DNA from: a phage
DNA length: 64,000 nt
Reading direction: 5' to 3' (one strand)
Sequence record: PQ724393.1
The notes under the pieces were generated by a model that was not told the DNA's origin, searched no databases, and saw only the letters and a list, made by a program, of their open reading frames with translations. Below, in pieces: positions 21,457 to 56,797 of the stretch (position 1 is its first letter; each line of letters begins with the position of its first letter). The translations under genes and the position numbers were made by a program.

Positions 21457-22151
21457 TTCAGGAAACCTCGGACGTAGTCAAAATCACGTTCAAACACGTG
21501 TGCACTTACCATGGTGTGGGAATACGTACCTAAACCAACACCACACTGTTCAGCAATAAATGCCATCAGTTTACCCTGCAGATAGAAATCCAGCTGCATA
21601 ACAACAGCGCAGTTTTGTGAACGCATATGGGTGTGTGCATACAAACGCCCGTCACGAATATAATACGTTACCGAATCGGTGCAAGGGTATTCTAAGGATT
21701 CGTCAGAATCAAGGAGGGCTTGGTCTTGTTCTTGGAGAATCTGGAACACAACTCTTCGCGAGTTGGCCTTTTCTTTAAGCTCTTTAAGTAGGGCTGGGAG
21801 TTGGGCCGCAATTCGAGGTCCATAGAAAGTGTTGAAGTTTGCAGGCAATACGTCACTTTTCGGCTTATCAATGAACTTAGCAACATTAGGGTATTCCTTA
21901 AATGCTTCGGCAGCGTCAGTACCACCAGAAATCATAAATTTCCAAAAGGATTCGGCATATTCATAACTGATACGATTGATACGTGGGTCGGTGAATTTAT
22001 AGGTGCTGACATCCAGTACTTCTATAGAAGCAGAACCAATTTCATAACAACGTCCGATACGAGAATCAACTGCAAACTGTGGAGCTTCCAGGATTTCTTC
22101 GTTCATTTGTTTAAATGCATTTTCAAAACTAACAGCGGTAATGTGTTTCAT
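21453..22151 (-). CDS. 42: dCMP hydroxymethylase-like enzyme (thymidylate synthase fold), gp42 position
   Basis: 232 aa; EYPCTDSVTYYIRD...HMRSQN resembles T4 gp42 FMCTNTVQYLIRD...MRSND; divergent. Confidence 0.7.
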   Translation of the reverse strand: MKHITAVSFENAFKQMNEEILEAPQFAVDSRIGRCYEIGSASIEVLDVSTYKFTDPRINRISYEYAESFWKFMISGGTDAAEAFKEYPNVAKFIDKPKSDVLPANFNTFYGPRIAAQLPALLKELKEKANSRRVVFQILQEQDQALLDSDESLEYPCTDSVTYYIRDGRLYAHTHMRSQNCAVVMQLDFYLQGKLMAFIAEQCGVGLGTYSHTMVSAHVFERDFDYVRGFLK

Positions 22152-22684
22152 TTATTCACCTTATTTTCAATATATTCGTTCAGACGTTTTAATTCTACCA
22201 TATCAACATTAAGCAAATTATTATGGCCGTCATGATTTAAGATTTTAAACACGTTTTCAAAACATGTTTCGTATTGCTGGATAGTTAGGTTGAACTCATC
22301 TTTGGTTAATTTAATAAGGTCATCTTCGAAGTCTTCGTCTAATGGGTTGCGAGTTAAAATAACTTCGATAACGTTAAATTCAGATTTAAACCCTTTCCAA
22401 TCTTCCAGTTCTACATAAGGGTCCATTTCACCACGAAGGAATCCCGAGTAAACAATATTACTAGGATACCCACGGTCTAAGATGTAGACAAAATTAGGGT
22501 CTAAAAACTTATACAGAGTTTCAACTAAAGCCTTGTCATTATCAGTCCCTAATGAAATGCATTTGCCATTAATCTTTTTAGGGAAATCAATAAGACGATA
22601 TTTCTTATCAGATAAAAGTGATTCAATTAAAGTAGACTTCCCGGAATTATCCGGGCCGTCGATAACAATGATTTTTGGTTTCAC
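22148..22684 (-). CDS. P-loop kinase (thymidylate/dNMP-kinase-like)
   Basis: 178 aa; Walker A IIVIDGPDNSGKST, DRGY motif; GTG start overlapping upstream stop. Confidence 0.6.
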   Translation of the reverse strand: MKPKIIVIDGPDNSGKSTLIESLLSDKKYRLIDFPKKINGKCISLGTDNDKALVETLYKFLDPNFVYILDRGYPSNIVYSGFLRGEMDPYVELEDWKGFKSEFNVIEVILTRNPLDEDFEDDLIKLTKDEFNLTIQQYETCFENVFKILNHDGHNNLLNVDMVELKRLNEYIENKVNK

Positions 22685-23064
22685 GGATGATATGCCTTAT
22701 AACTATCAAGAGTTCCTTCACGAACCAATTCTTTAAAGTGGTCTGGACGGATTGCTCGGTCATCGATGATAAAAGTATAACTCGGCTTGTGTGTAAGCAA
22801 ATTGTGATATTTCAATCCAATTTTTTCAAGGTTCTTAACCAATGCAGGAACTACTTCAACCAAGATTCGACCTGGGCCACATGAAGTCATGCCACGGGCA
22901 GTGAATAATGTAATCTCGTACCCTTCATCATAAAGCTTATTAATCATGGACACCATTTCGGTGTCCGGTTTAAAGTTCTCATAATCACGGTCATGGTTCC
23001 AAATCGTGATTGTGTTATCGATATCAAAACATAAATGTGGCTTATTTTCTACTCGATGCGACAT
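22681..23064 (-). CDS. HAD-superfamily phosphatase
   Basis: 127 aa; motif I CFDIDNTIT (DxDxT); start reset to ATG 23064 (TAATG overlap). Confidence 0.6.
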   Translation of the reverse strand: MSHRVENKPHLCFDIDNTITIWNHDRDYENFKPDTEMVSMINKLYDEGYEITLFTARGMTSCGPGRILVEVVPALVKNLEKIGLKYHNLLTHKPSYTFIIDDRAIRPDHFKELVREGTLDSYKAYHP

Positions 23065-24737
23065 TAAATTTTCTTCCATTGTTTGTGGAGTTCAGTAGAA
23101 CCTGTAGGTTTATATTTTACACCAGTTTCCTGGTCAAGCAAAACCCACTTATCAGGACAACGAGTAATAATTTGAGCCGTGATAGGGTCACGAACTTCAT
23201 CGACAAATTCACCAGTAATAAGCTTACGCTTACGAGGATGCCGCTTCAGCAGCACACTCAGTTGGTACAAACCGTTATAATAAGCACCCAGAGCTTTCAG
23301 AGGGTTATTCTTAAAGTAACCTGCCAGAGCCATCCAAATAACAGCAATCCAGAGCTTGTGCTTAAATGTGCACATAGGAATATCGTCTAAAGGCATAACC
23401 TTTTCAATATCAACGAATACACGAGTTCCATTACGAGTTAATCCACCCCATAGAGGGTCTGAGTTAAATTTGTCATAGCCATCGATAGAATAAAGCACCT
23501 TAGCTTCATCATAAATCGCAGGGCCTTTAGAACTATTACCGAAATAACCACGTGGGTCGATGATTTTAATATCACCTTCGTCCGACAGCATAATATTACT
23601 GTAGTGCGGGTCGCCATGAATAAGTTGGTACGGCTCTTTATGTTCAGACAGAATTTCTAGTGCGTGGCGGAGAAGTTTTTCAGGGTCGCCTACTTTGAAA
23701 TCGTTAACATGGGTAATGCCTTGTGGAGCAAAGCCTTCAATCAATCCAGCAATAGAAGCATTACGAATAAGGACCTTGTCCAATACTTCTTTCTTAACAT
23801 CAGAATACCATTGCTCATCGGACGGATTATCGATAGTTCCACCAAATGAACGTAATGCACTAATGACCTTATAAACCATGAGGACTTTAGTTTCTTTAGA
23901 CATAAACCGGTAGGCATCTGCCATGGTGCGACCAAAGATACGTTCCATTTTAATGAATTCGCCTGGAGCAAAGTCTACAATGCTCGGAACAAATTCAGAA
24001 TCAATAGAATTATACCAATTGATTTCTTTAGATTGGATTTCTTTACCTAATTCGTTGGTAGGTACTTTAATAGCCAGATTCTCAGTGAACTCTAATTTAT
24101 TAAATTCACGGTTAATTTCAGAATCTTCATGGGCCCTAGCCAGTTTCAATTTGTCACCGACATCAACCACAAAGTCCAGCTTACGTTCAGTCAAATGGAC
24201 CATCGAATCCAGGTTGTCTGCAAGGTCTTCGCCATAATTAGAACGGTCGAAACCTGTCCAATTAGCCACCTGATACAAACCAACCACACCACCGCCAGTA
24301 CCAATTTCACGCAAGTACGGTTCTTCAAATGTAAAACGACAGTCGGTCCCATAGGTATAACAGTAGTCGTTATCCCACTCAACTTTATGACCTTCAGGAA
24401 TAATATCACACCAGTTAAACAAGACATTATGCCCGATGATATCTTCGGCAATGCAATCGATAGCATGAGCTGAACCGTTGGCCACATCTACGTTACGAAT
24501 AGTGAATTTAGGCTTATCACTGGTAATCATGTTAATGGATTTAATGTAACCCTTAACGAGGTCATTAAATTTGCTGTGAATAACCAGAATAATTTCATCT
24601 GATTGGTTACTATACAAATCATACAAATGTTTTAGTACTGTATGCTGTTTGTAGTTAACCAATACCTTCGGGATTTCGTTAGTAATTGGATACAACCGTG
24701 AGCCAAGACCCGCGCCTAAAATAACAACCTTTTTCAT
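23064..24737 (-). CDS. bifunctional sugar-1-phosphate nucleotidyltransferase / kinase
   Basis: 557 aa; N-terminus VVILGAGLGSRLYPIT (GxGxRL of RmlA/GlmU-type); C-terminus LIHGDPHYSNIMLSDEGDIKIIDPRGYF (HGD..N...D APH/choline-kinase-like); SD GAGGAA before ATG 24737. Confidence 0.7.
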   Translation of the reverse strand: MKKVVILGAGLGSRLYPITNEIPKVLVNYKQHTVLKHLYDLYSNQSDEIILVIHSKFNDLVKGYIKSINMITSDKPKFTIRNVDVANGSAHAIDCIAEDIIGHNVLFNWCDIIPEGHKVEWDNDYCYTYGTDCRFTFEEPYLREIGTGGGVVGLYQVANWTGFDRSNYGEDLADNLDSMVHLTERKLDFVVDVGDKLKLARAHEDSEINREFNKLEFTENLAIKVPTNELGKEIQSKEINWYNSIDSEFVPSIVDFAPGEFIKMERIFGRTMADAYRFMSKETKVLMVYKVISALRSFGGTIDNPSDEQWYSDVKKEVLDKVLIRNASIAGLIEGFAPQGITHVNDFKVGDPEKLLRHALEILSEHKEPYQLIHGDPHYSNIMLSDEGDIKIIDPRGYFGNSSKGPAIYDEAKVLYSIDGYDKFNSDPLWGGLTRNGTRVFVDIEKVMPLDDIPMCTFKHKLWIAVIWMALAGYFKNNPLKALGAYYNGLYQLSVLLKRHPRKRKLITGEFVDEVRDPITAQIITRCPDKWVLLDQETGVKYKPTGSTELHKQWKKI

Positions 24738-24797
24738 TATCTGTTCCTCAAGTGAATGTAGGTACATTATACACTATTTTTAATAAATTGGTATTGC

Positions 24798-25298
24798 TTA
24801 AATCTTATCTTTACCGATTTCAATACACCGTTCTATTGCCGCCGGTACTTTGGTCTTGAGCTTATTGATTTGTTTCTTATAATCACGGGCTTTATCGAAG
24901 CTCTCGGTTTCGAGCATTTCGTAATAACGAGCCTCGTGGATGGAAATCTGTAGATTGATATGGTTTACGCACATCGCATACAGTTTCTGCTTTTTGTACA
25001 AATCATCTTGACGCTTCATTTCTGCCTGGTGTTTGGCTAGTACCGCTTCACGCTTAGACTCTTGTTCACGTTGGAATTCGATTTCCCTTTGAGCATATTT
25101 TGCACAGTTATTACCGCATTGATTATTAGCTCGGGTATACACAAGCCCAGAACCAGCACGGAATTTCATTTCACCGTCATATTGTTTCTGTTCAGCTGCG
25201 ATACGAGCTTTACCAACTTCATCAGCCGAAACTGCATCGCCATATTGGACCGCGCAACCTGATAGGAGCATACTCATTGCGATAATTAACTTTTTCAT
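24798..25298 (-). CDS. putative lipoprotein (166 aa)
   Basis: Signal peptide with lipobox LLSGC; SD AAGGGAA. Confidence 0.6.
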   Translation of the reverse strand: MKKLIIAMSMLLSGCAVQYGDAVSADEVGKARIAAEQKQYDGEMKFRAGSGLVYTRANNQCGNNCAKYAQREIEFQREQESKREAVLAKHQAEMKRQDDLYKKQKLYAMCVNHINLQISIHEARYYEMLETESFDKARDYKKQINKLKTKVPAAIERCIEIGKDKI

Positions 25299-25307
25299 GG
25301 AATTCCC

Positions 25308-25544
25308 TTACTGTTTAACAATAATGATTTGTGCATTTGATTTACGTTCAGCGACGATGGCCCAGATTAAAGCCACTACCCAACCAATCATCGTCCAACC
25401 CAACAGGAGGTTTAGGAAGAAAATTCCGACATTACTACGAGTGCCTCGCAGAAGAGCCAGAATCCATGGTAAAAAGTAACCGATGAACATAATAACCAGA
25501 GAACCGAATCCTAAAACACCAGCACTAACGATTAAAGCTTCCAT
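25308..25544 (-). CDS. two-TM membrane protein, Imm-like (superinfection immunity position)
   Basis: 78 aa, two hydrophobic helices; immediately before gene 43 as T4 imm; promoter and SD GAGGAAA. Confidence 0.55.
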   Translation of the reverse strand: MEALIVSAGVLGFGSLVIMFIGYFLPWILALLRGTRSNVGIFFLNLLLGWTMIGWVVALIWAIVAERKSNAQIIIVKQ

Positions 25545-25574
25545 TGTAATTTCCTCATGTAGTTGATAGGAAGG

Positions 25575-25604
25575 ATACTACCACGTTCCTTGTGGTATGT
25601 AAAC
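25575..25604 (-). promoter_or_regulatory. early promoter upstream of imm-like gene
   Basis: GTTTAC-18-TAGTAT. Confidence 0.5.
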
Positions 25605-25606
25605 AC

Positions 25607-28318
25607 TTAAAAGTCGAACATATCAAATAATGTTGCTTTTTTCTCGTAGTCGATTTTAGCAGACTCAGTAAAACCAGTCAGAGGCTTGATAAAGGTCTTT
25701 TGGAACAGTACGTTGTAGTCCATCCAACGGAGGACTTGGTCACGAATCTGAATCGGAAGTTCAATACCTGACGGCCATGCCATACAAGCTTCACCGAACG
25801 GGTTGCCTTCTTTAAGCGGCAGTACATATACCTTTTCACCATCAACGATACGAGGCATAGTCAAATCACCTGCAGAAGCACGCATGTAAGCTAAGCAACC
25901 TTTGATGTGGTACGGGCATTTAGAACCAGGGAATCCGCCTTCATTATATTTCTCGATGTTGTTAGCACTGGATACTGCTGCAATGCTTACATAGTTGAGT
26001 TCGTTAAATTCCTTATTAAACTGTTTGAAATATTCTTGCAAAGATGCCTCACCTTCCTGAAGCATACGACGGATACATTCCTTCAGAGCTTTCTGAACTG
26101 CTTTAGGTGTACTTGATTTCTGAGTTTCGAGGCCCATGATTTTCAAGTGTGGTTCGGCATAACGAGTACCTTCCATGTCCCAAACGTTCAGTGCATAACG
26201 TTTCTTACCTGTCCAGAATCCACCAAGACCTTTAGAACCAAGTGGAGGACCTGCGATAGCTTCTCGGTCCATGAACATCAAGTGCTGTTTGTTGTTCATG
26301 TACTCGCACATCTCACGGAAGCCTGCATCAATAGCCGGTTCCATACGTTCACGTGCAAATTTATCTAAGAAGTCAACCCAGTGGTTAGTATCACGGAATT
26401 TGTCTTCGCCTACTTTATTGATGATTGCATCAGCCTTAACATAAATGGAGTCAGTATCACCATAGAGCACGAACTTCTGGTTTTCAGTCTTGCACACACC
26501 ATTCAGGTATTCGTTAACCTTACGTTCAATCCATTGGAGGGCCATTTGACCAAACAGTGTGATTGCAGTTGCGTTCCTGAGGTCGTAATAACGGAACCAT
26601 ACGTTACCAAGTGCACCATAAAGGGAGTTGATAAGCAACTTACGGTTAATCTGAGCAGTCATACCTGCAACTTCGGTACGTTCAGCTCTGAACAACATTT
26701 CTCTTAAAGAAGGTGCTGACAGCGTTTTAATCTTGGCTTTGATTTCGTCAGAGAAGTCAAAACGATAATCGATATCCAGTGGACTATCAGCCGAGAGATT
26801 AGGATTTTCTAATGCTTCTTTAATTAACTCACCATTACGTTGAGCTGCAAGCATATAACCTTTATGTTCTTTACGTTGTAAGAACACCTTAGTGATTTCT
26901 GTAGGAATAACACCATCGCGGTCTTTATAGTACATCATGCCGTTAGGAGAGCAACTGTAGACGTCGCTAGGACGCGGAGCTGTTCCGGCAATATATTCAT
27001 GTATCGGTGCGTTAGCGAATGTCCCTGCGATGGTCTCTGGGCTTATATTCACTTGTCGAATGATACTCGGGTACAGAGATGTAAGGTCGAAACTCATTAC
27101 ATATTTGTAAGCGTTAGGAATCGGTTCCTTAACGAAAGCACCAGGATAAGGTTGAACCACGTGTGAACGAGCTTGTGGAATTACCTTGCCTTGTTCTTTA
27201 AGGCTATTAAAGATAATAGCGTCCCAAGTCTTAATTGGACTAAACACCGACTGAATCTGCATCTTGGCATAATAACCCATGTCCAAACTCAGAAGAATGA
27301 ACTGACGCTTCATATCAATCTGCACTACACGATATACGTCGATAATGTTATAGGAAATATATCGTTGGTGGTTCGTCTCACGTAACTTAGAGATTGGACC
27401 ATCATATTTCAACTTACCCACTTTCAATTCATATTCAGAAACATAATCCAGAGAATAAGAAGGCTGGTTGGTGAAGCTGAATTTTTTATAGAGGTCGATA
27501 TAATCCAGAACAGAGATACCGAACAATGTAATGATTTCACGAGCACCGTACATGTTCTCAATAACTTTAACACGAGTTTTACGATGTGGGCTTAATCGCT
27601 TAGCAGTGTTCTCACCGAACAGATTTTTCAGACGGTTATAAACGTACGGTACGTCAAACGACTCAACGTTCCATCCAGTCAAAATCACAGGAGTTTTCTG
27701 TTGCCAGAAATTCAAGTACTCAAGCATCATTTCTTCTTCAGAATTAAACGGAAGATAAACGATTTTGTCAATGATTTCCTGTGGAACTTCGTCACCACCT
27801 TCGTCTTGGAGTTTCTCAGCGATTTTAATCGACCACTCTTCAACAGTACCATAAGGCGAAACTAAAAGGTCGAATACATAGAATTTATCGTCAATCGAGT
27901 CGTAGTGGGTAATGGCATCGATAGGATGTTTAGCCTGAGCTGGTTCAGGGAATCCATCAGGAGATGTTACCTCGATGTCGAAGTTAGCAATACGAATCTT
28001 AGAAGAATCATATTTGATTTCTTTACGATAGGTATCAGACAAATAGGCTAATTTATAGTCGTCCATACCCAGGGCTTCGAGACCCATATCATCCATACGT
28101 TTCATCCATTGGGATGCATCACGCATAGAATCGAATTCTTTCTTAACACAACCCTTACCATAGATATCAATGTATTTTACGGCTTGCTCTGGGTTAGCAT
28201 GCATAAACATTGTGGGCTTGTATGGAACTTCACGACTACGTTCGTTACCATTTTTATCGATGTAACGTTCGAGAATATTATCACCGATTTGTTCGACTGT
28301 CAAATAGAATTCTTGCAT
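25607..28318 (-). CDS. 43: DNA polymerase gp43 (family B, with 3'-5' exonuclease)
   Basis: Start reset to MQEFYLTVEQ... (ATG 28318, SD AAAGGA); exo motif FDIEV; YGDTDS polymerase motif; strong similarity to recalled RB69/T4 gp43. Confidence 0.95.
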   Translation of the reverse strand: MQEFYLTVEQIGDNILERYIDKNGNERSREVPYKPTMFMHANPEQAVKYIDIYGKGCVKKEFDSMRDASQWMKRMDDMGLEALGMDDYKLAYLSDTYRKEIKYDSSKIRIANFDIEVTSPDGFPEPAQAKHPIDAITHYDSIDDKFYVFDLLVSPYGTVEEWSIKIAEKLQDEGGDEVPQEIIDKIVYLPFNSEEEMMLEYLNFWQQKTPVILTGWNVESFDVPYVYNRLKNLFGENTAKRLSPHRKTRVKVIENMYGAREIITLFGISVLDYIDLYKKFSFTNQPSYSLDYVSEYELKVGKLKYDGPISKLRETNHQRYISYNIIDVYRVVQIDMKRQFILLSLDMGYYAKMQIQSVFSPIKTWDAIIFNSLKEQGKVIPQARSHVVQPYPGAFVKEPIPNAYKYVMSFDLTSLYPSIIRQVNISPETIAGTFANAPIHEYIAGTAPRPSDVYSCSPNGMMYYKDRDGVIPTEITKVFLQRKEHKGYMLAAQRNGELIKEALENPNLSADSPLDIDYRFDFSDEIKAKIKTLSAPSLREMLFRAERTEVAGMTAQINRKLLINSLYGALGNVWFRYYDLRNATAITLFGQMALQWIERKVNEYLNGVCKTENQKFVLYGDTDSIYVKADAIINKVGEDKFRDTNHWVDFLDKFARERMEPAIDAGFREMCEYMNNKQHLMFMDREAIAGPPLGSKGLGGFWTGKKRYALNVWDMEGTRYAEPHLKIMGLETQKSSTPKAVQKALKECIRRMLQEGEASLQEYFKQFNKEFNELNYVSIAAVSSANNIEKYNEGGFPGSKCPYHIKGCLAYMRASAGDLTMPRIVDGEKVYVLPLKEGNPFGEACMAWPSGIELPIQIRDQVLRWMDYNVLFQKTFIKPLTGFTESAKIDYEKKATLFDMFDF

Positions 28319-51953: not shown

Positions 51954-52232
51954 TTATAGCTTTTTAAGCTTACGACAATAAGAATAGAACACGTCGTTAA
52001 AATTATGCTCAACCCAATTCCTCTGTATAGGCGAGGTAATGGAAAGCATATAATGGGCTTTAATTAAATCCATCCCATTTTTATTAGGACATTCTTTATT
52101 ATTAGCATTATACGTCGCCGCTACAACCTCTATCTCTCTTTTGTAAGCCACATCATCCATGATAGGCGAAAGAACAATATAAGAAATAGCCACAGCGAAC
52201 GCTAGAATTAAAATCTTTGAATTTAGGTCCAT
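51954..52232 (-). CDS. small membrane protein (92 aa)
   Basis: N-terminal TM helix. Confidence 0.5.
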   Translation of the reverse strand: MDLNSKILILAFAVAISYIVLSPIMDDVAYKREIEVVAATYNANNKECPNKNGMDLIKAHYMLSITSPIQRNWVEHNFNDVFYSYCRKLKKL

Positions 52233-52239
52233 AGTACCC

Positions 52240-52812
52240 TCAACTCGTTATTTCTATCCAGTGCTTCCTGCACAATGACACGTAAGAATCGTTGCCACCT
52301 ATAGAAACTTGGGCTCCGTCCTTAATTGCGACACCATCTTGGACCCTAGCAGTCATAGTAGCTTTACGGCCGCAATGGCACACACCTTTGTACTCAACGA
52401 GCTTATCTGCTGTAGCGAGTAATTCAGCAGAGCCAGGAAACAGTTTACCCTGAAAATCAGTTCTTAGTCCATAACACATAACTGGAACATTATAATTGTC
52501 TACTATCTTCGCCAGTTGTTTTATCTGTGCAGGTTCTAAGAACTGTGCTTCATCCACAAATACGCAGTGGATATCTTTTTGAGATTCAGCCCAACGATAG
52601 AACTCGTATAGGTCCATATCCGGAGTCACTGCATTAGCCTCTTGACTAATCCCTATACGAGACGAAATGGTATGGCTTGATTCTCTATTGTCTATCGCAG
52701 GCTTTAAAAGGAGTACGCCCATACCACGTTCTTTGTAGTTATGAGCTGCCGTTAGCAATGAAGCTGTCTTACCTGAGTTCATTGCCGCATAGTGAAACAT
52801 CAAACTTGCCAT
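52240..52812 (-). CDS. tk: thymidine kinase
   Basis: 190 aa; MASLMFHYAAMNSGKTASLL...VFVDEAQF...CHCG matches recalled T4 Tk. Confidence 0.9.
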   Translation of the reverse strand: MASLMFHYAAMNSGKTASLLTAAHNYKERGMGVLLLKPAIDNRESSHTISSRIGISQEANAVTPDMDLYEFYRWAESQKDIHCVFVDEAQFLEPAQIKQLAKIVDNYNVPVMCYGLRTDFQGKLFPGSAELLATADKLVEYKGVCHCGRKATMTARVQDGVAIKDGAQVSIGGNDSYVSLCRKHWIEITS

Positions 52813-52821
52813 ATCACCTTC

Positions 52822-53007
52822 TTATTCTGTAATACTTTCCAGATAATTTTCTAAATCGTCTGAAGCCTTATTAAGGGCTTCTAGCGCTTTATAATAGTCT
52901 TCACGGGAGTAATATTCTGTATGAAGTTCTTCGTCGTATTCGCTTTTAGCATCAACAACAGTTTCAATCATATCCAGAATTTTATTTTTCTGTTCTTTAG
53001 TAATCAT
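52822..53007 (-). CDS. small acidic protein (61 aa)
   Basis: Paralog of 53016..53201. Confidence 0.45.
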   Translation of the reverse strand: MITKEQKNKILDMIETVVDAKSEYDEELHTEYYSREDYYKALEALNKASDDLENYLESITE

Positions 53008-53015
53008 AATATACC

Positions 53016-53201
53016 CTAAAGCGTATTCACATAAGCAATTAATTCGTTTTCTTTCTCATCAAATCTATTAGCAAATTCTTCCAGACGTTCGGCATCTATC
53101 GGGCCGTATTCATCGTAAAAAGCGTTTGCTTCGGTATGTTCATCCAAAAGCTCATGAATAAGCTCAAACAATCTACTTTTCTGACTAATACTTAAACTCA
53201 T
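53016..53201 (-). CDS. small acidic protein (61 aa)
   Basis: Paralog of 52822..53007. Confidence 0.45.
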   Translation of the reverse strand: MSLSISQKSRLFELIHELLDEHTEANAFYDEYGPIDAERLEEFANRFDEKENELIAYVNTL

Positions 53202-53404
53202 TTAGGTTCACCATATCGCACAAATTTAGGATGTTCGCAATAACCGGAATGAAAACCTTCACCCTTATGATTAGAACATCCTTTATTAGAACAGTACCAC
53301 CAGTAATCATATTCGCAATTCATTTCATCATTGCATAAAGCTGCGATTACCGGCCATTCACATTTTTCACATTTAGCCGTTTTAAGAATTCTAGCTTGGC
53401 TCAT
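53198..53404 (-). CDS. cysteine-rich small protein (68 aa)
   Basis: Start reset to ATG 53404 (ATGA overlap); multiple Cys pairs. Confidence 0.45.
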   Translation of the reverse strand: MSQARILKTAKCEKCEWPVIAALCNDEMNCEYDYWWYCSNKGCSNHKGEGFHSGYCEHPKFVRYGEPK

Positions 53405-53613
53405 AACCATTGCACCTTTAAGCAATATTCTTCTACATGCTGTTTACGTTTATTTTTATCTATAAAAGTATATTCAACATATTCACCGATATACCATTTA
53501 TCAGTGTTGTGTTGACTTTTTATAGGGCATTTAGTTACTCGGGTTTCGGTCCAGCGCCGAATAATTTCAGCTTTATTTTTAGGGTCAAACGGATGCGGGT
53601 AATGTGCTTTCAT
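53401..53613 (-). CDS. hypothetical protein (70 aa)
   Basis: Track ORF; SD GGTGGA. Confidence 0.45.
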   Translation of the reverse strand: MKAHYPHPFDPKNKAEIIRRWTETRVTKCPIKSQHNTDKWYIGEYVEYTFIDKNKRKQHVEEYCLKVQWL

Positions 53614-54064
53614 AATCCACCACTATTAAATCAATATCAGGGGTAAACATGTCGATTAATTTAGAAACCTTTTCCCAATCACCGCCAGCAATACCACAAC
53701 CGATGCGAGGAATATAAATTCTTGGTTTAAACAAAAGGGTTTCTGCTTGTAGATTTAATTCTATCATACAGTTTACTAAAGCACCGTAATCAAGATTAGG
53801 GCCGGGTTCGTATTGGGTGTATAAATTATAGCACATTGCAAATCCATTAGGCTTATGTTTAAAAACAATAGACATATCGCCTAATTTATCACGAGAACCG
53901 TATTCAGTAGTGGTCTTATCAATTTCTAAGATTTTAGGATAGGCTCTTGCTAATTGACCGGCCACGCCTGAACCCATAGTATGAAAACAGTTGCACCCAT
54001 GTGCAATAATATTACCTTGGAGAAACAGGGCGACGATATCGCCCTTAATATAATCAATAATCAT
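53585..54064 (-). CDS. macro-domain protein (ADP-ribose binding/hydrolase fold)
   Basis: 159 aa; NIIAHGCNCFHTMGSGVAGQL and PRIGCGIAGGDW match macro-domain signatures. Confidence 0.65.
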   Translation of the reverse strand: MIIDYIKGDIVALFLQGNIIAHGCNCFHTMGSGVAGQLARAYPKILEIDKTTTEYGSRDKLGDMSIVFKHKPNGFAMCYNLYTQYEPGPNLDYGALVNCMIELNLQAETLLFKPRIYIPRIGCGIAGGDWEKVSKLIDMFTPDIDLIVVDYESTLPASV

Positions 54065-54417
54065 TTAGAGTTTAATCCTCGGTTGTAGGAGTCAACGAGT
54101 CTGTCTACCATAGACGCGCACATTTCTTTGTACTTTTTATCAGACGGAACACATTCAGTAACGTTTAGACGTTGCTCGTATCTTTTAGAAAGAGTTTTCT
54201 CTTTCATTCGGCGATGCTCGACGTCGTTCTGTCCATCTTTAAAAGCAGCTGTTATTTTTGAACTGAATTCAATAACGCATTCAGTATTACTCGGATGACA
54301 ATAATCTTTTGCTGTACGGGTGGCATACTCAACAATTGAATTATTTGTATCATCAACTTGTGACGCTAATACTCCCGGAGCAATCAACATAAGCGCTATA
54401 GTCATCTGCTTAATCAT
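54061..54417 (-). CDS. secreted cysteine-containing protein (118 aa)
   Basis: N-terminal signal peptide (cleavage near LAS-Q). Confidence 0.5.
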   Translation of the reverse strand: MIKQMTIALMLIAPGVLASQVDDTNNSIVEYATRTAKDYCHPSNTECVIEFSSKITAAFKDGQNDVEHRRMKEKTLSKRYEQRLNVTECVPSDKKYKEMCASMVDRLVDSYNRGLNSK

Positions 54418-54957
54418 TTAATACACCGCCTCAAACATCTTTTTAGATTTTAGATAATTGGCCTTTTCTAGAACTTCAGAAGCATATTTACTGCCTGCTT
54501 TGACGTCCCAGCCCGCATTATAAGAAGCAATCGCTTTTCTCAGGTCACCTTTGTGAACATCAATCCAATAAGACAGTTCAATGTAGGCCCAAGAGGCACT
54601 GTTCTGTCGTTTTTGGACCATACGAATTATTTCTTTGTCTGACATCTTCCAACCTACCTGTTGAACACGACTTCTTAACGTAGGCAAGTAATTTTGGAAC
54701 ATGCCATAAGCATGGTGCTTATCTTTATTTAAACCCTGATTAATTCCGGCGGATGATTCCTGCCATAGTAATCCGGCCATGATATATCCTAATCCTTTTT
54801 GATTAGGGTTTTCTTTGAACTTTCCCGACTTTTGGTATTGTTCACCGAAAGCATACGCATAATGCAAATTGTCGAGTTGCTCACTGTTGAAAGTAGGCTC
54901 TACGCTATAGGCAGACATACTAACTGTCAATAGTAAAGTGGCTAATACTTTTTTCAT
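54418..54957 (-). CDS. secreted lytic-transglycosylase-like protein (SLT domain)
   Basis: Signal peptide; LWQESS catalytic-Glu motif, AYGMFQ, SYNAG. Confidence 0.55.
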   Translation of the reverse strand: MKKVLATLLLTVSMSAYSVEPTFNSEQLDNLHYAYAFGEQYQKSGKFKENPNQKGLGYIMAGLLWQESSAGINQGLNKDKHHAYGMFQNYLPTLRSRVQQVGWKMSDKEIIRMVQKRQNSASWAYIELSYWIDVHKGDLRKAIASYNAGWDVKAGSKYASEVLEKANYLKSKKMFEAVY

Positions 54958-54969
54958 GAGACCTCATTA

Positions 54970-55428
54970 TTAAAGATAGATTACTTTCGTGCTGGTTTTA
55001 CCTTCTAAACGTTTAGAGTTAACAAATGCCATACGACATTTTAATGAATATCCTTTATCAGGATGTTTACGATCTACGGTCATACCCAACCATAAGGTTT
55101 TATCAGTAATCTCGAGACGCAGCGGACGATACACTTTACCTGGGACAATTTCAGATTCTATGTCAGGAAGAGGCTCCTGGATTAAAAATTCATGGATTTC
55201 TTTAACATGGTTATGGAGTTGCTTGAATAAAGCAAAAACGTATTTTTCGTCAATTTCACGTTGGATAGCACGGTCCAACAAGTGATTAGAGTACTTAATA
55301 AAGAAAGCTGGGACCCCGCTCTTGATGGCGGCTTTTTTGATGGACGCGTTAAGTTCACGAAATTCGGTTTCGAACTGACGACGTAATTTGTTGCGGCGGA
55401 TGAATACTTCTGAATTAATTTCTGACAT
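54970..55428 (-). CDS. regB: RegB endoribonuclease
   Basis: Start reset to MSEINSEVFIRRNKLRR...; 153 aa; strong similarity to recalled T4 RegB; promoter and SD AGGAGA upstream. Confidence 0.8.
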   Translation of the reverse strand: MSEINSEVFIRRNKLRRQFETEFRELNASIKKAAIKSGVPAFFIKYSNHLLDRAIQREIDEKYVFALFKQLHNHVKEIHEFLIQEPLPDIESEIVPGKVYRPLRLEITDKTLWLGMTVDRKHPDKGYSLKCRMAFVNSKRLEGKTSTKVIYL

Positions 55429-55456
55429 TTTGTAATCTCCTGTAGTTGATAGGTCT

Positions 55457-55485
55457 ATAGTATCATGTCTACAGGAGATGTAAAC
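55457..55485 (-). promoter_or_regulatory. conserved early promoter upstream of regB
   Basis: GTTTAC-17-TGATACTATAGACCTATCAAC; arms CTCCTGTAG/CTACAGGAG. Confidence 0.65.
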
Positions 55486-55490
55486 TGCTT

Positions 55491-55769
55491 TTAGTATTTT
55501 TCCTCGGGTTGGAAAACAGAACGACAGGCCCACATGGATGCTTCTTTCAAGCGTTCGATTGCCGTACGAATCTGGGTAATGCGTTCATGAGCCTGGTCTA
55601 GTTCTTGTTCAGAAACCTCTTCGGCATCTAAGTTCATATAATAGGTAACATGTTCTTCTTCTAATGCTTTAAAGATTAAGCCTAATCGAACTTCAGCATC
55701 TTTAATGGCATTCACTTTACTGATTTTATCGTCGGTATGTGACTTGTAACCTTTGATATCTTCAATCAT
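55491..55769 (-). CDS. hypothetical protein (92 aa)
   Basis: Track ORF. Confidence 0.5.
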   Translation of the reverse strand: MIEDIKGYKSHTDDKISKVNAIKDAEVRLGLIFKALEEEHVTYYMNLDAEEVSEQELDQAHERITQIRTAIERLKEASMWACRSVFQPEEKY

Positions 55770-55984
55770 TTCACTTCCTCATCAGATGCAATATCATATT
55801 CTACAAAACGAAGGCCATCGTATCCACCACTAACAGAGATATACGTAGTCGGGTAAACAATTTCTTTACCATTCCATTGACCGCCGTCCCAACATTCCAT
55901 AAAGCCTTGTTCGCCCTGTTCGTGGAACCAGTCAACAAACATCTTCAGAGCTTCATCAGAGCCTTCAATTGTCAATTTAGACAT
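55766..55984 (-). CDS. hypothetical protein (72 aa)
   Basis: Track ORF. Confidence 0.5.
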   Translation of the reverse strand: MSKLTIEGSDEALKMFVDWFHEQGEQGFMECWDGGQWNGKEIVYPTTYISVSGGYDGLRFVEYDIASDEEVK

Positions 55985-56273
55985 ATTTTTTCCAGTCAGA
56001 AATCATATGAATCTCTTGGTCATACGTCAAGAGACTGCGAGTAATAATACCCTTGCACGGCCCAGAGATGAACTCGAGAGTGAAGTAAGGAACCTGTTTC
56101 ATTAATCGGATGCTTGGGGCATGGCATCTAAAACGAGAGCCCTTAAAGGGCCCTGACATGAATACATATTCTAATGGATAGAAATAAGCATATTCGAAAT
56201 TTGCAGTAAGGTCCTCTCTTCGAACCTTACGTGAGAAATAACAGAACTCAAAAAGTTCTTCATCAGTCATCAT
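55977..56273 (-). CDS. hypothetical protein (98 aa)
   Basis: Track ORF. Confidence 0.5.
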   Translation of the reverse strand: MMTDEELFEFCYFSRKVRREDLTANFEYAYFYPLEYVFMSGPFKGSRFRCHAPSIRLMKQVPYFTLEFISGPCKGIITRSLLTYDQEIHMISDWKKYV

Positions 56274-56797
56274 TGCATTCCTATCACAAAGAACAGCGGC
56301 AGAGGTTTAGAACCCTGGCACATAAATTTGTTAATCATTACCTGGTAAGCTTCATAGAACTTATCCATCGATGGAAGGCGCATTGGCTCTTCGATAATAA
56401 TCAATAATCGAGTAACTGATAGACCACGATACTTATGGAAGTTATCTTCGTCTAAAAATGATCGCACGGTATCATATACAATAAACCCAGGACCTTCTAC
56501 TTGAAGATGTGGATGAGCCTTAGAAACCCTTTTTATTACATTACAGATTTCGCGTGACCGGTGCGAAGAACTCGACATAACAATCACATCATTACCCTTG
56601 GAAACCCAATCAGCTGCGAACTGGGCAAGGGCACTTGTTTTACCTGTTTGGCGTCCGCCGTCAAGTCGAAGAGTACCAAACTCTTGCATTCTTGAAGTAG
56701 GTTCGTACCAGGTGTATTGGTTTGAGTCTAATCGTTCAATGGCGCGTTCAGCGAAGGCGTGCATTAAGGTTAGATAAATGGGAGTTAAAAATTTCAT
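56270..56797 (-). CDS. P-loop NTPase-like protein (175 aa)
   Basis: Walker A GGRQTGKTSA; Walker B-like LLIIIEEP. Confidence 0.5.
   Translation of the reverse strand: MKFLTPIYLTLMHAFAERAIERLDSNQYTWYEPTSRMQEFGTLRLDGGRQTGKTSALAQFAADWVSKGNDVIVMSSSSHRSREICNVIKRVSKAHPHLQVEGPGFIVYDTVRSFLDEDNFHKYRGLSVTRLLIIIEEPMRLPSMDKFYEAYQVMINKFMCQGSKPLPLFFVIGMQ

Follow-up and report, generated by a model that had tools for sequence, protein, structure and literature searches.

Several macrodomain proteins are known to act on the DNA mark made by DarT toxins. The SCO6735 protein of Streptomyces coelicolor outpaces both DarG and TARG1 in cleaving DarT-made thymidine-linked ADP-ribose (T-ADPr) DNA, and it relieves DarT toxicity; TARG1 likewise cleaves T-ADPr DNA (PMC9411070). 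A water-activated, lysine-independent mechanism has been proposed for SCO6735, whose Q85A and Q85E variants are inactive, and a mobile loop ~5 residues longer than that of TARG1/DarG is held to be characteristic of the SCO6735/BT1257 subclass (PMC9411070). Among phage proteins, gp104 of PhiKZ, a single-domain macrodomain named AdfM, strips DarT2-made ADP-ribose from TNTC DNA in vitro and rescues DarT2 toxicity, and its activity is reduced by the N23A exchange (PMC13309987). In T4, phages without adfA and adfN are still DarTG2-resistant (PMC11825919), and a further anti-DarTG2 factor is therefore expected. According to a November 2025 preprint, a screen of a T4 transposon library on a DarTG2 host yielded tk.4 as the single significant HIDEN-SEQ hit, and a clean T4 tk.4 knockout becomes DarTG2-sensitive; the gene was renamed adfM, and enzymatic removal of ADP-ribose from DNA was proposed (10.1101/2025.11.20.689424). 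The DarTG2 evidence for T4 tk.4 is genetic and stems from this preprint.

The window, a stretch of 64,000 nucleotides of phage DNA (PQ724393.1), carries a counterpart of this gene on its minus strand (Table 1). Its segment 52000-56000 is ~95.6% identical to JS98-like T4-type phages (Dhakavirus, Straboviridae) by megablast, which places the window among the JS98-like members of Dhakavirus. Minus-strand genes closely surround tk.4 within the tk-regB block, where tk and regB bracket it as the earlier note had placed it; the coordinates and length that this note gave for the 159-aa ORF are exact. The TGA stop of vs overlaps the ATG of tk.4 (ATGA), which suggests that the two genes are co-transcribed and translationally coupled, and the start of tk.3 overlaps the 3' end of tk.4 by 29 nt.

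Table 1. Coordinates of tk.4, its functional motifs, its neighbours, and the ADP-ribosyltransferase genes in the window
Feature	Position	Strand	Basis
modA-like ADP-ribosyltransferase gene	9885-10499	-	PHROG 832 'RNA polymerase ADP-ribosylase', E 1e-44; JS98 annotation
modB-like ADP-ribosyltransferase gene	10554-11126	-	PHROG 832, E 6e-37; JS98 annotation
tk	52240-52812	-	
Tk.1 ortholog, 61-aa acidic helical ORF	52822-53007	-	
Small Cys/His-rich ORF	53198-53425	-	
tk.3, 70-aa ORF, downstream neighbour of tk.4	53401..53613	-	
tk.4/adfM ortholog, 159-aa single-domain macrodomain protein, ATG start	53585..54064 (stop included)	-	ORF list
Residues 119-130 PRIGCGIAGGDW, second Gly-rich diphosphate-binding loop of the tk.4 product	53675..53710	-	translation
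Candidate MotA-box-like middle-promoter motif	53783-53758	-	
Gln84 codon of tk.4	53813..53815	-	HMM and MAFFT alignments
Residues 22-38 HGCNCFHTMGSGVAGQL, strand beta-2 and first Gly-rich substrate/phosphate-binding loop	53951..54001	-	translation
vs (valyl-tRNA synthetase modifier), upstream neighbour of tk.4	54061..54417	-	
vs.1	54418-54957	-	
regB	54970-55428	-	probable start ATG at 55428
Candidate early promoter, sigma-70-like	55484-55457	-	

A scan of 52000-56500 for sigma-70 promoters and terminators returned 12 sites versus 13.8 expected from shuffled sequence. Directly upstream of the probable regB start lies a sigma-70-like site (TTTACA-16-TACTAT, extended TG), a candidate early promoter for regB-vs.1-vs-tk.4 from a scan that as a whole performed no better than chance. 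On the coding strand inside tk.4, a candidate MotA-box-like motif (TGCTTTA-N13-TAGAAT) might serve transcription from tk.3 to tk; over the whole window, the minus (coding) strand has 28 motifs of this kind and the plus strand 14. JS98 harbors, at 22069-26243 (~1.5 kb lower in the window), the RB69-like genes orf047c-orf052c between uvsX and gene 43, with an annotated thymidylate kinase and phosphoheptose isomerase, at a place where T4 has other genes; we take this cluster to be, possibly, an RB69-type DNA hypermodification (sugar-hmC) cassette. The products Vs (MIKQMTIALMLIAPGVLAS...) and Vs.1 (MKKVLATLLLTVSMSAYS...) show hydrophobic N-termini reminiscent of signal peptides, which in the case of Vs would be unexpected for a modifier of a cytoplasmic synthetase. 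In the HIDEN-SEQ preprint, vs is described as conditionally important in minimal medium (10.1101/2025.11.20.689424).

The window protein aligns with T4 Tk.4 (NP_049723) over 155/155 residues with zero gaps and 56% identity. The two proteins thus differ in 44% of residues, furthermore in length (155 aa in T4 and 159 aa in the window, where a 4-aa C-terminal extension is present) and in the second Gly-rich loop (GAGIGKGNW in T4, GCGIAGGDW in the window); they are alike in belonging to PHROG 335 (E 1e-70 for the window protein) and in carrying His22, Asn25, Gln84, and the Gly-rich loops. The gene order tk.3-tk.4-vs-vs.1-regB is common to T4, JS98, and the window, the longer orders being tk, tk.2, orf102, tk.3, tk.4, vs, vs.1, regB in the JS98 RefSeq record and tk, tk.1, tk.2, tk.3, tk.4, vs, vs.1 in T4. 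The tk.4 region of the window is ~95% identical to its JS98 counterpart, which RefSeq labels 'phosphatase; Tk.4; contains A1pp phosphatase motif', and some GenBank records label the tk.4 ortholog 'macro domain protein'. On the strength of full-length similarity and synteny, the ORF is assigned as the syntenic ortholog of T4 tk.4 and a member of the T4 Tk.4/AdfM orthologous group. Both the macrodomain gene, annotated in reference genomes, and the anti-DarTG2 role given to the T4 ortholog are hence already known; the long-annotated tk.4 identity had been missed in the earlier note.

The gene is present in a single copy per phage genome. Its product yields 782 homologs at E<=1e-5 and tblastn matches in 2772 phage records; homologs occur in many phage groups, e.g. 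Felixounavirus and Pakpunavirus. Tk.4 goes unnamed in the Aravind survey, and phage macrodomains are absent from the set tested in a JACS 2026 paper on hydrolase specificity. Two further small ORFs of the region can be placed by orthology. The Tk.1 ortholog is 40% identical to T4 Tk.1 and lies in a ~194 bp segment missing from JS98, where tk adjoins tk.2 directly; on this comparison, the segment is a small indel polymorphism in the Dhakavirus tk region. The Cys/His-rich ORF (CEKCEW...CNDEMNCEYDYWWYCSNKGCSNHKGEGFHSGYCEH) is the ortholog of JS98 orf102 and RB32 ORF111c, and its product looks like a zinc-binding protein.

The macro-domain motifs HGCNCFHTMGSGVAGQL and PRIGCGIAGGDW, on which the product had been assigned to the macro family, stand in the translation, and the assignment is borne out by a Pfam Macro match (PF01661) that scores 33.4 bits where the gathering threshold is 22 (E 5e-8) and extends over positions 2-117 of the 118-position profile. 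Both Gly-rich phosphate-binding loops are present and conserved on alignment of 78 Tk.4 homologs, which reach down to 38% identity. The best sequence matches in the PDB are BT1257 (2FG1/2AFC), Poa1p, SCO6735 (5E3B), the macrodomain of M. tuberculosis DarG (5M3I), and TARG1. A profile of the 78-sequence family scores BT1257 at 74 bits, TARG1 at 65, SCO6735 at 61, Poa1p at 59, Mtb DarG at 51, and Taq DarG at 45, while the coronavirus and alphavirus macrodomains reach ~20 bits. An AlphaFold2 model built on the same alignment gives a confident macro fold (pLDDT 94.7, pTM 0.89), with a three-layer alpha/beta architecture and two Gly-rich loops lining the ADP-ribose cleft; its top Foldseek match is TARG1 (E 4.5e-10, TM 0.73-0.82). 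The nearest structural and sequence neighbours are thereby members of the ALC1/TARG1-like class, taken here as TARG1, DarG, SCO6735/BT1257, and Poa1p, and stand apart from the MacroD, viral, and PARG classes. Since the profile scores and the model with its Foldseek matches agree, the window protein is classified, as judged from sequence and predicted structure, as a stand-alone single-domain ALC1/TARG1-like macrodomain.

The active site sets the Tk.4 family apart from DarG, TARG1, and PhiKZ AdfM. Invariant in the 78 homologs are His22, Gly23, Asn25, Cys26, Gly33, and Ala35 of the first Gly-rich loop as well as P119, G122, G124, and W130 of the second, and Q84 is kept in 78/78. Gln84 of the window protein and its T4 Tk.4 equivalent occupy the position of the catalytic lysine (K84 of TARG1, K80 in the FPTK motif of Taq DarG, K78 of PhiKZ gp104). 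One MAFFT run placed a gap at this position, and another MAFFT run and the HMM alignment gave Gln84; every alignment made was devoid of a lysine in the loop NLYTQYEPGPN of the window protein. Human TARG1/OARD1 shares the HxC..MGxG and PRIGCG motifs with the window protein, whereas its catalytic dyad Lys84/Asp125 is replaced by Gln84/Ala126, the latter residue being aligned with Asp125 in the HMM alignment to TARG1 PRIGCGLDRLQW. His22, Asn25, and Gln84 align with H24, N27, and Q85 of SCO6735, and Asn25 aligns with N23 of PhiKZ AdfM. The Tk.4 family is thus predicted to use an SCO6735-type His22/Asn25/Gln84 site and not the DarG/TARG1 lysine. This Gln-type active site may be the sole point that goes beyond the existing literature.

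With the SCO6735/BT1257 subclass, the window protein has in common a Gln at the DarG/TARG1 lysine position and the His and Asn of the HxCN motif. Strict membership in this subclass is ruled out, as the window protein does not have the defining mobile loop, which is 5-6 residues longer in SCO6735 and BT1257; relative to the Tk.4 family profile, these two have 6 extra residues after the Gln. Moreover, K34 and K89 of SCO6735, which are implicated in activity, correspond to Ser32 and a gap, the pI is 5.1 versus 9.7 for SCO6735, and BT1257 of Bacteroides thetaiotaomicron is 28% identical to the window protein. A homolog from Pelagimonas phthalicica (41% identity) is encoded on the chromosome as a stand-alone gene (L004, 5001-5459) in a housekeeping setting, next to genes for peptidase M23, a tryptophan halogenase-like protein, and peptidase U32; among these neighbours there is neither a DarT nor another toxin gene, and the homolog resembles SCO6735 rather than an antitoxin.

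The best PADLOC and NCBIfam matches of the window protein are DarG models, in each case only to the N-terminal macro portion (positions 2-144 of 329 in the PADLOC model; positions 1-142 of 338 in the DarG equivalog NF048014, with 28.1 bits where at least 250 are required). The DarG macrodomains of M. tuberculosis (5M3I) and T. aquaticus (5M31) are 21-23% identical to the window protein, and the genes beside tk.4 are vs and tk.3, with no DarT gene among them. A DarG antitoxin is ruled out by the missing lysine, the missing second domain, the missing DarT neighbour, and the score far below the cut-off.

PhiKZ gp104, with N23 matching N25, is likewise a single-domain phage macrodomain with the same counter-defence role and name. 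It is a genuine DarG-type protein (E 9e-25 to Mtb DarG, FPTK lysine present), in contrast to the Gln-type window protein, and the two are 24% identical; by this comparison, the two phage AdfM proteins, Tk.4 and gp104, are of different lineages within the same macrodomain class. They also differ in their setting, gp104 of this chimallivirus being imported into the phage nucleus, a compartment that T4-like phages do not possess.

Taken together, the window protein is most probably the Dhakavirus AdfM (anti-DarT factor, macrodomain), a T-ADPr DNA hydrolase directed against DarTG2. The suggestion in the earlier note that the protein could counter host ADP-ribose-based defence agrees with the published genetics of T4 tk.4/adfM on the DarTG2 host. 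We infer the same activity for the 56%-identical ortholog as for T4 Tk.4, and a catalysis based on Gln. In the proposed sequence of events, the protein would be made along with the other products of the pre-replicative tk-vs-regB block. Host DarT2 would attach ADP-ribose to the second T of TNTC motifs in single-stranded phage DNA, and the window protein would take up the DNA-linked ADP-ribose in the cleft formed by its Gly-rich loops. There, the distal ribose and a water molecule would be held in place by His22, Asn25, and Gln84, with the glutamine orienting the substrate or transition state for attack by the activated water; the N-glycosidic bond between ribose and thymine would be hydrolysed, and replicable DNA would be restored, whereby the abortive DarTG2 defence would be neutralised.

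Several features speak against the AdfM assignment. The identity to T4 Tk.4 is modest, the catalytic lysine of DarG/TARG1 and the Asp of TARG1 are missing, and so are the long mobile loop and K34/K89 of SCO6735. Furthermore, an acidic protein does not offer an obvious DNA-binding surface; a similarly low pI (5.05) is nevertheless seen in PhiKZ AdfM, for which DNA ADP-ribose hydrolysis is proven.

Among the alternatives, it is unlikely that the tk.4 product works on soluble derivatives, as a Poa1p-like ADP-ribose-1''-phosphate phosphatase or an O-acetyl-ADP-ribose deacetylase, with RNA-repair by-products or immune signals as conceivable targets. The database label 'phosphatase / A1pp motif' points to such an activity, but it goes back to the generic name of the A1pp domain and has no assay as its source. 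With the O-acetyl-ADP-ribose deacetylase model of NCBIfam, the protein reaches 17 bits where 291 are required, and in T4 the genetic phenotype is that resistance to a DNA-ADP-ribosylating toxin is lost. Promiscuity is common among ALC1-like macrodomains, and a phosphatase or deacetylase side activity may be compatible in vitro with T-ADPr hydrolysis.

Still less probable is a role in reversing or tuning the ADP-ribosylation carried out by the phage itself (Alt, ModA, ModB, and RNAylation by ModB), which the earlier note had considered next to host defence. The two ModA/ModB-like genes on which the idea was built do exist in the same window and both match PHROG 832; a Pfam search of the two ORFs returned zero matches, and they were confirmed with PHROGs. 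The tuning of their activity finds no support, given that they lie ~43 kb from tk.4, which is situated inside the conserved tk-vs block, and that the fold class of the tk.4 product is not the arginine-specific one. Alt, ModA, and ModB attach ADP-ribose to arginine. The known substrates of the TARG1/DarG/SCO6735 class are ADP-ribose linked to thymidine in DNA or to Glu/Asp in proteins (PMC9411070); Arg-specific macrodomains are described as a separate MavL-type group (PMC10951314). Macro, NADAR, and ART domains do co-occur in large phages (PMC9503650), but the occurrence of Tk.4 homologs in groups such as Felixounavirus and Pakpunavirus may speak against such a role, and the phenotype reported for the T4 tk.4 knockout, the sole one known, is specific to DarTG2.

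Equally improbable is a non-catalytic neutralisation of DarTG2, in which the protein binds and inhibits DarT2, shields ADP-ribosylated DNA, or serves as an ADP-ribose reader. The absence of the DarG/TARG1 lysine would fit such a role, as would the observation that SCO6735, DarG, and TARG1 remain inhibitors of DarT in vitro when their catalysis is abolished, SCO6735 most strongly (PMC9411070). The invariance of His22, Asn25, and Gln84 across the 78 homologs, residues needed for catalysis by SCO6735, favours an enzyme instead. Likewise, the architecture of the window protein would not predict direct toxin inhibition, as it has no DarT-binding C-terminal domain (159 aa versus 338 positions in the DarG model). 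That tk.4 counters RNA-ADP-ribosylating defences such as CmdTAC can practically be dismissed: some macrodomains reverse nucleic-acid ADP-ribosylation and CmdTAC targets T-even phages, but wild-type T4, which bears tk.4, is strongly restricted by CmdTAC, with escape mapping to alt.-3 and not to tk.4.

Returning to AdfM as a T-ADPr hydrolase, it is possible, and only slightly less probable than its contrary, that Tk.4-type AdfM constitutes a third, phage-expanded ALC1-like lineage (Gln-type, short-looped, acidic) that removes T-ADPr by a lysine-independent, water-activated route and does not descend from a captured DarG. A substrate range extending to other host ADP-ribosyl marks is a further possibility.

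The name AdfM now spans two distinct macrodomain lineages, and neither this naming nor the description as a 'DarG homolog' in the available text of the preprint conveys the Gln-type active site. Since Tk.4-type AdfM is devoid of the DarG/TARG1 lysine and carries the His/Asn/Gln site of SCO6735, inhibitor design and mechanistic inference based on DarG would not transfer directly to it. A DarTG2 counter-defence gene carried by a JS98-like phage would help to predict which DarTG2-bearing strains therapeutic T4-like phages can infect. If the third lineage holds true, T4 Tk.4 and PhiKZ gp104 would represent convergent recruitments against the same defence.
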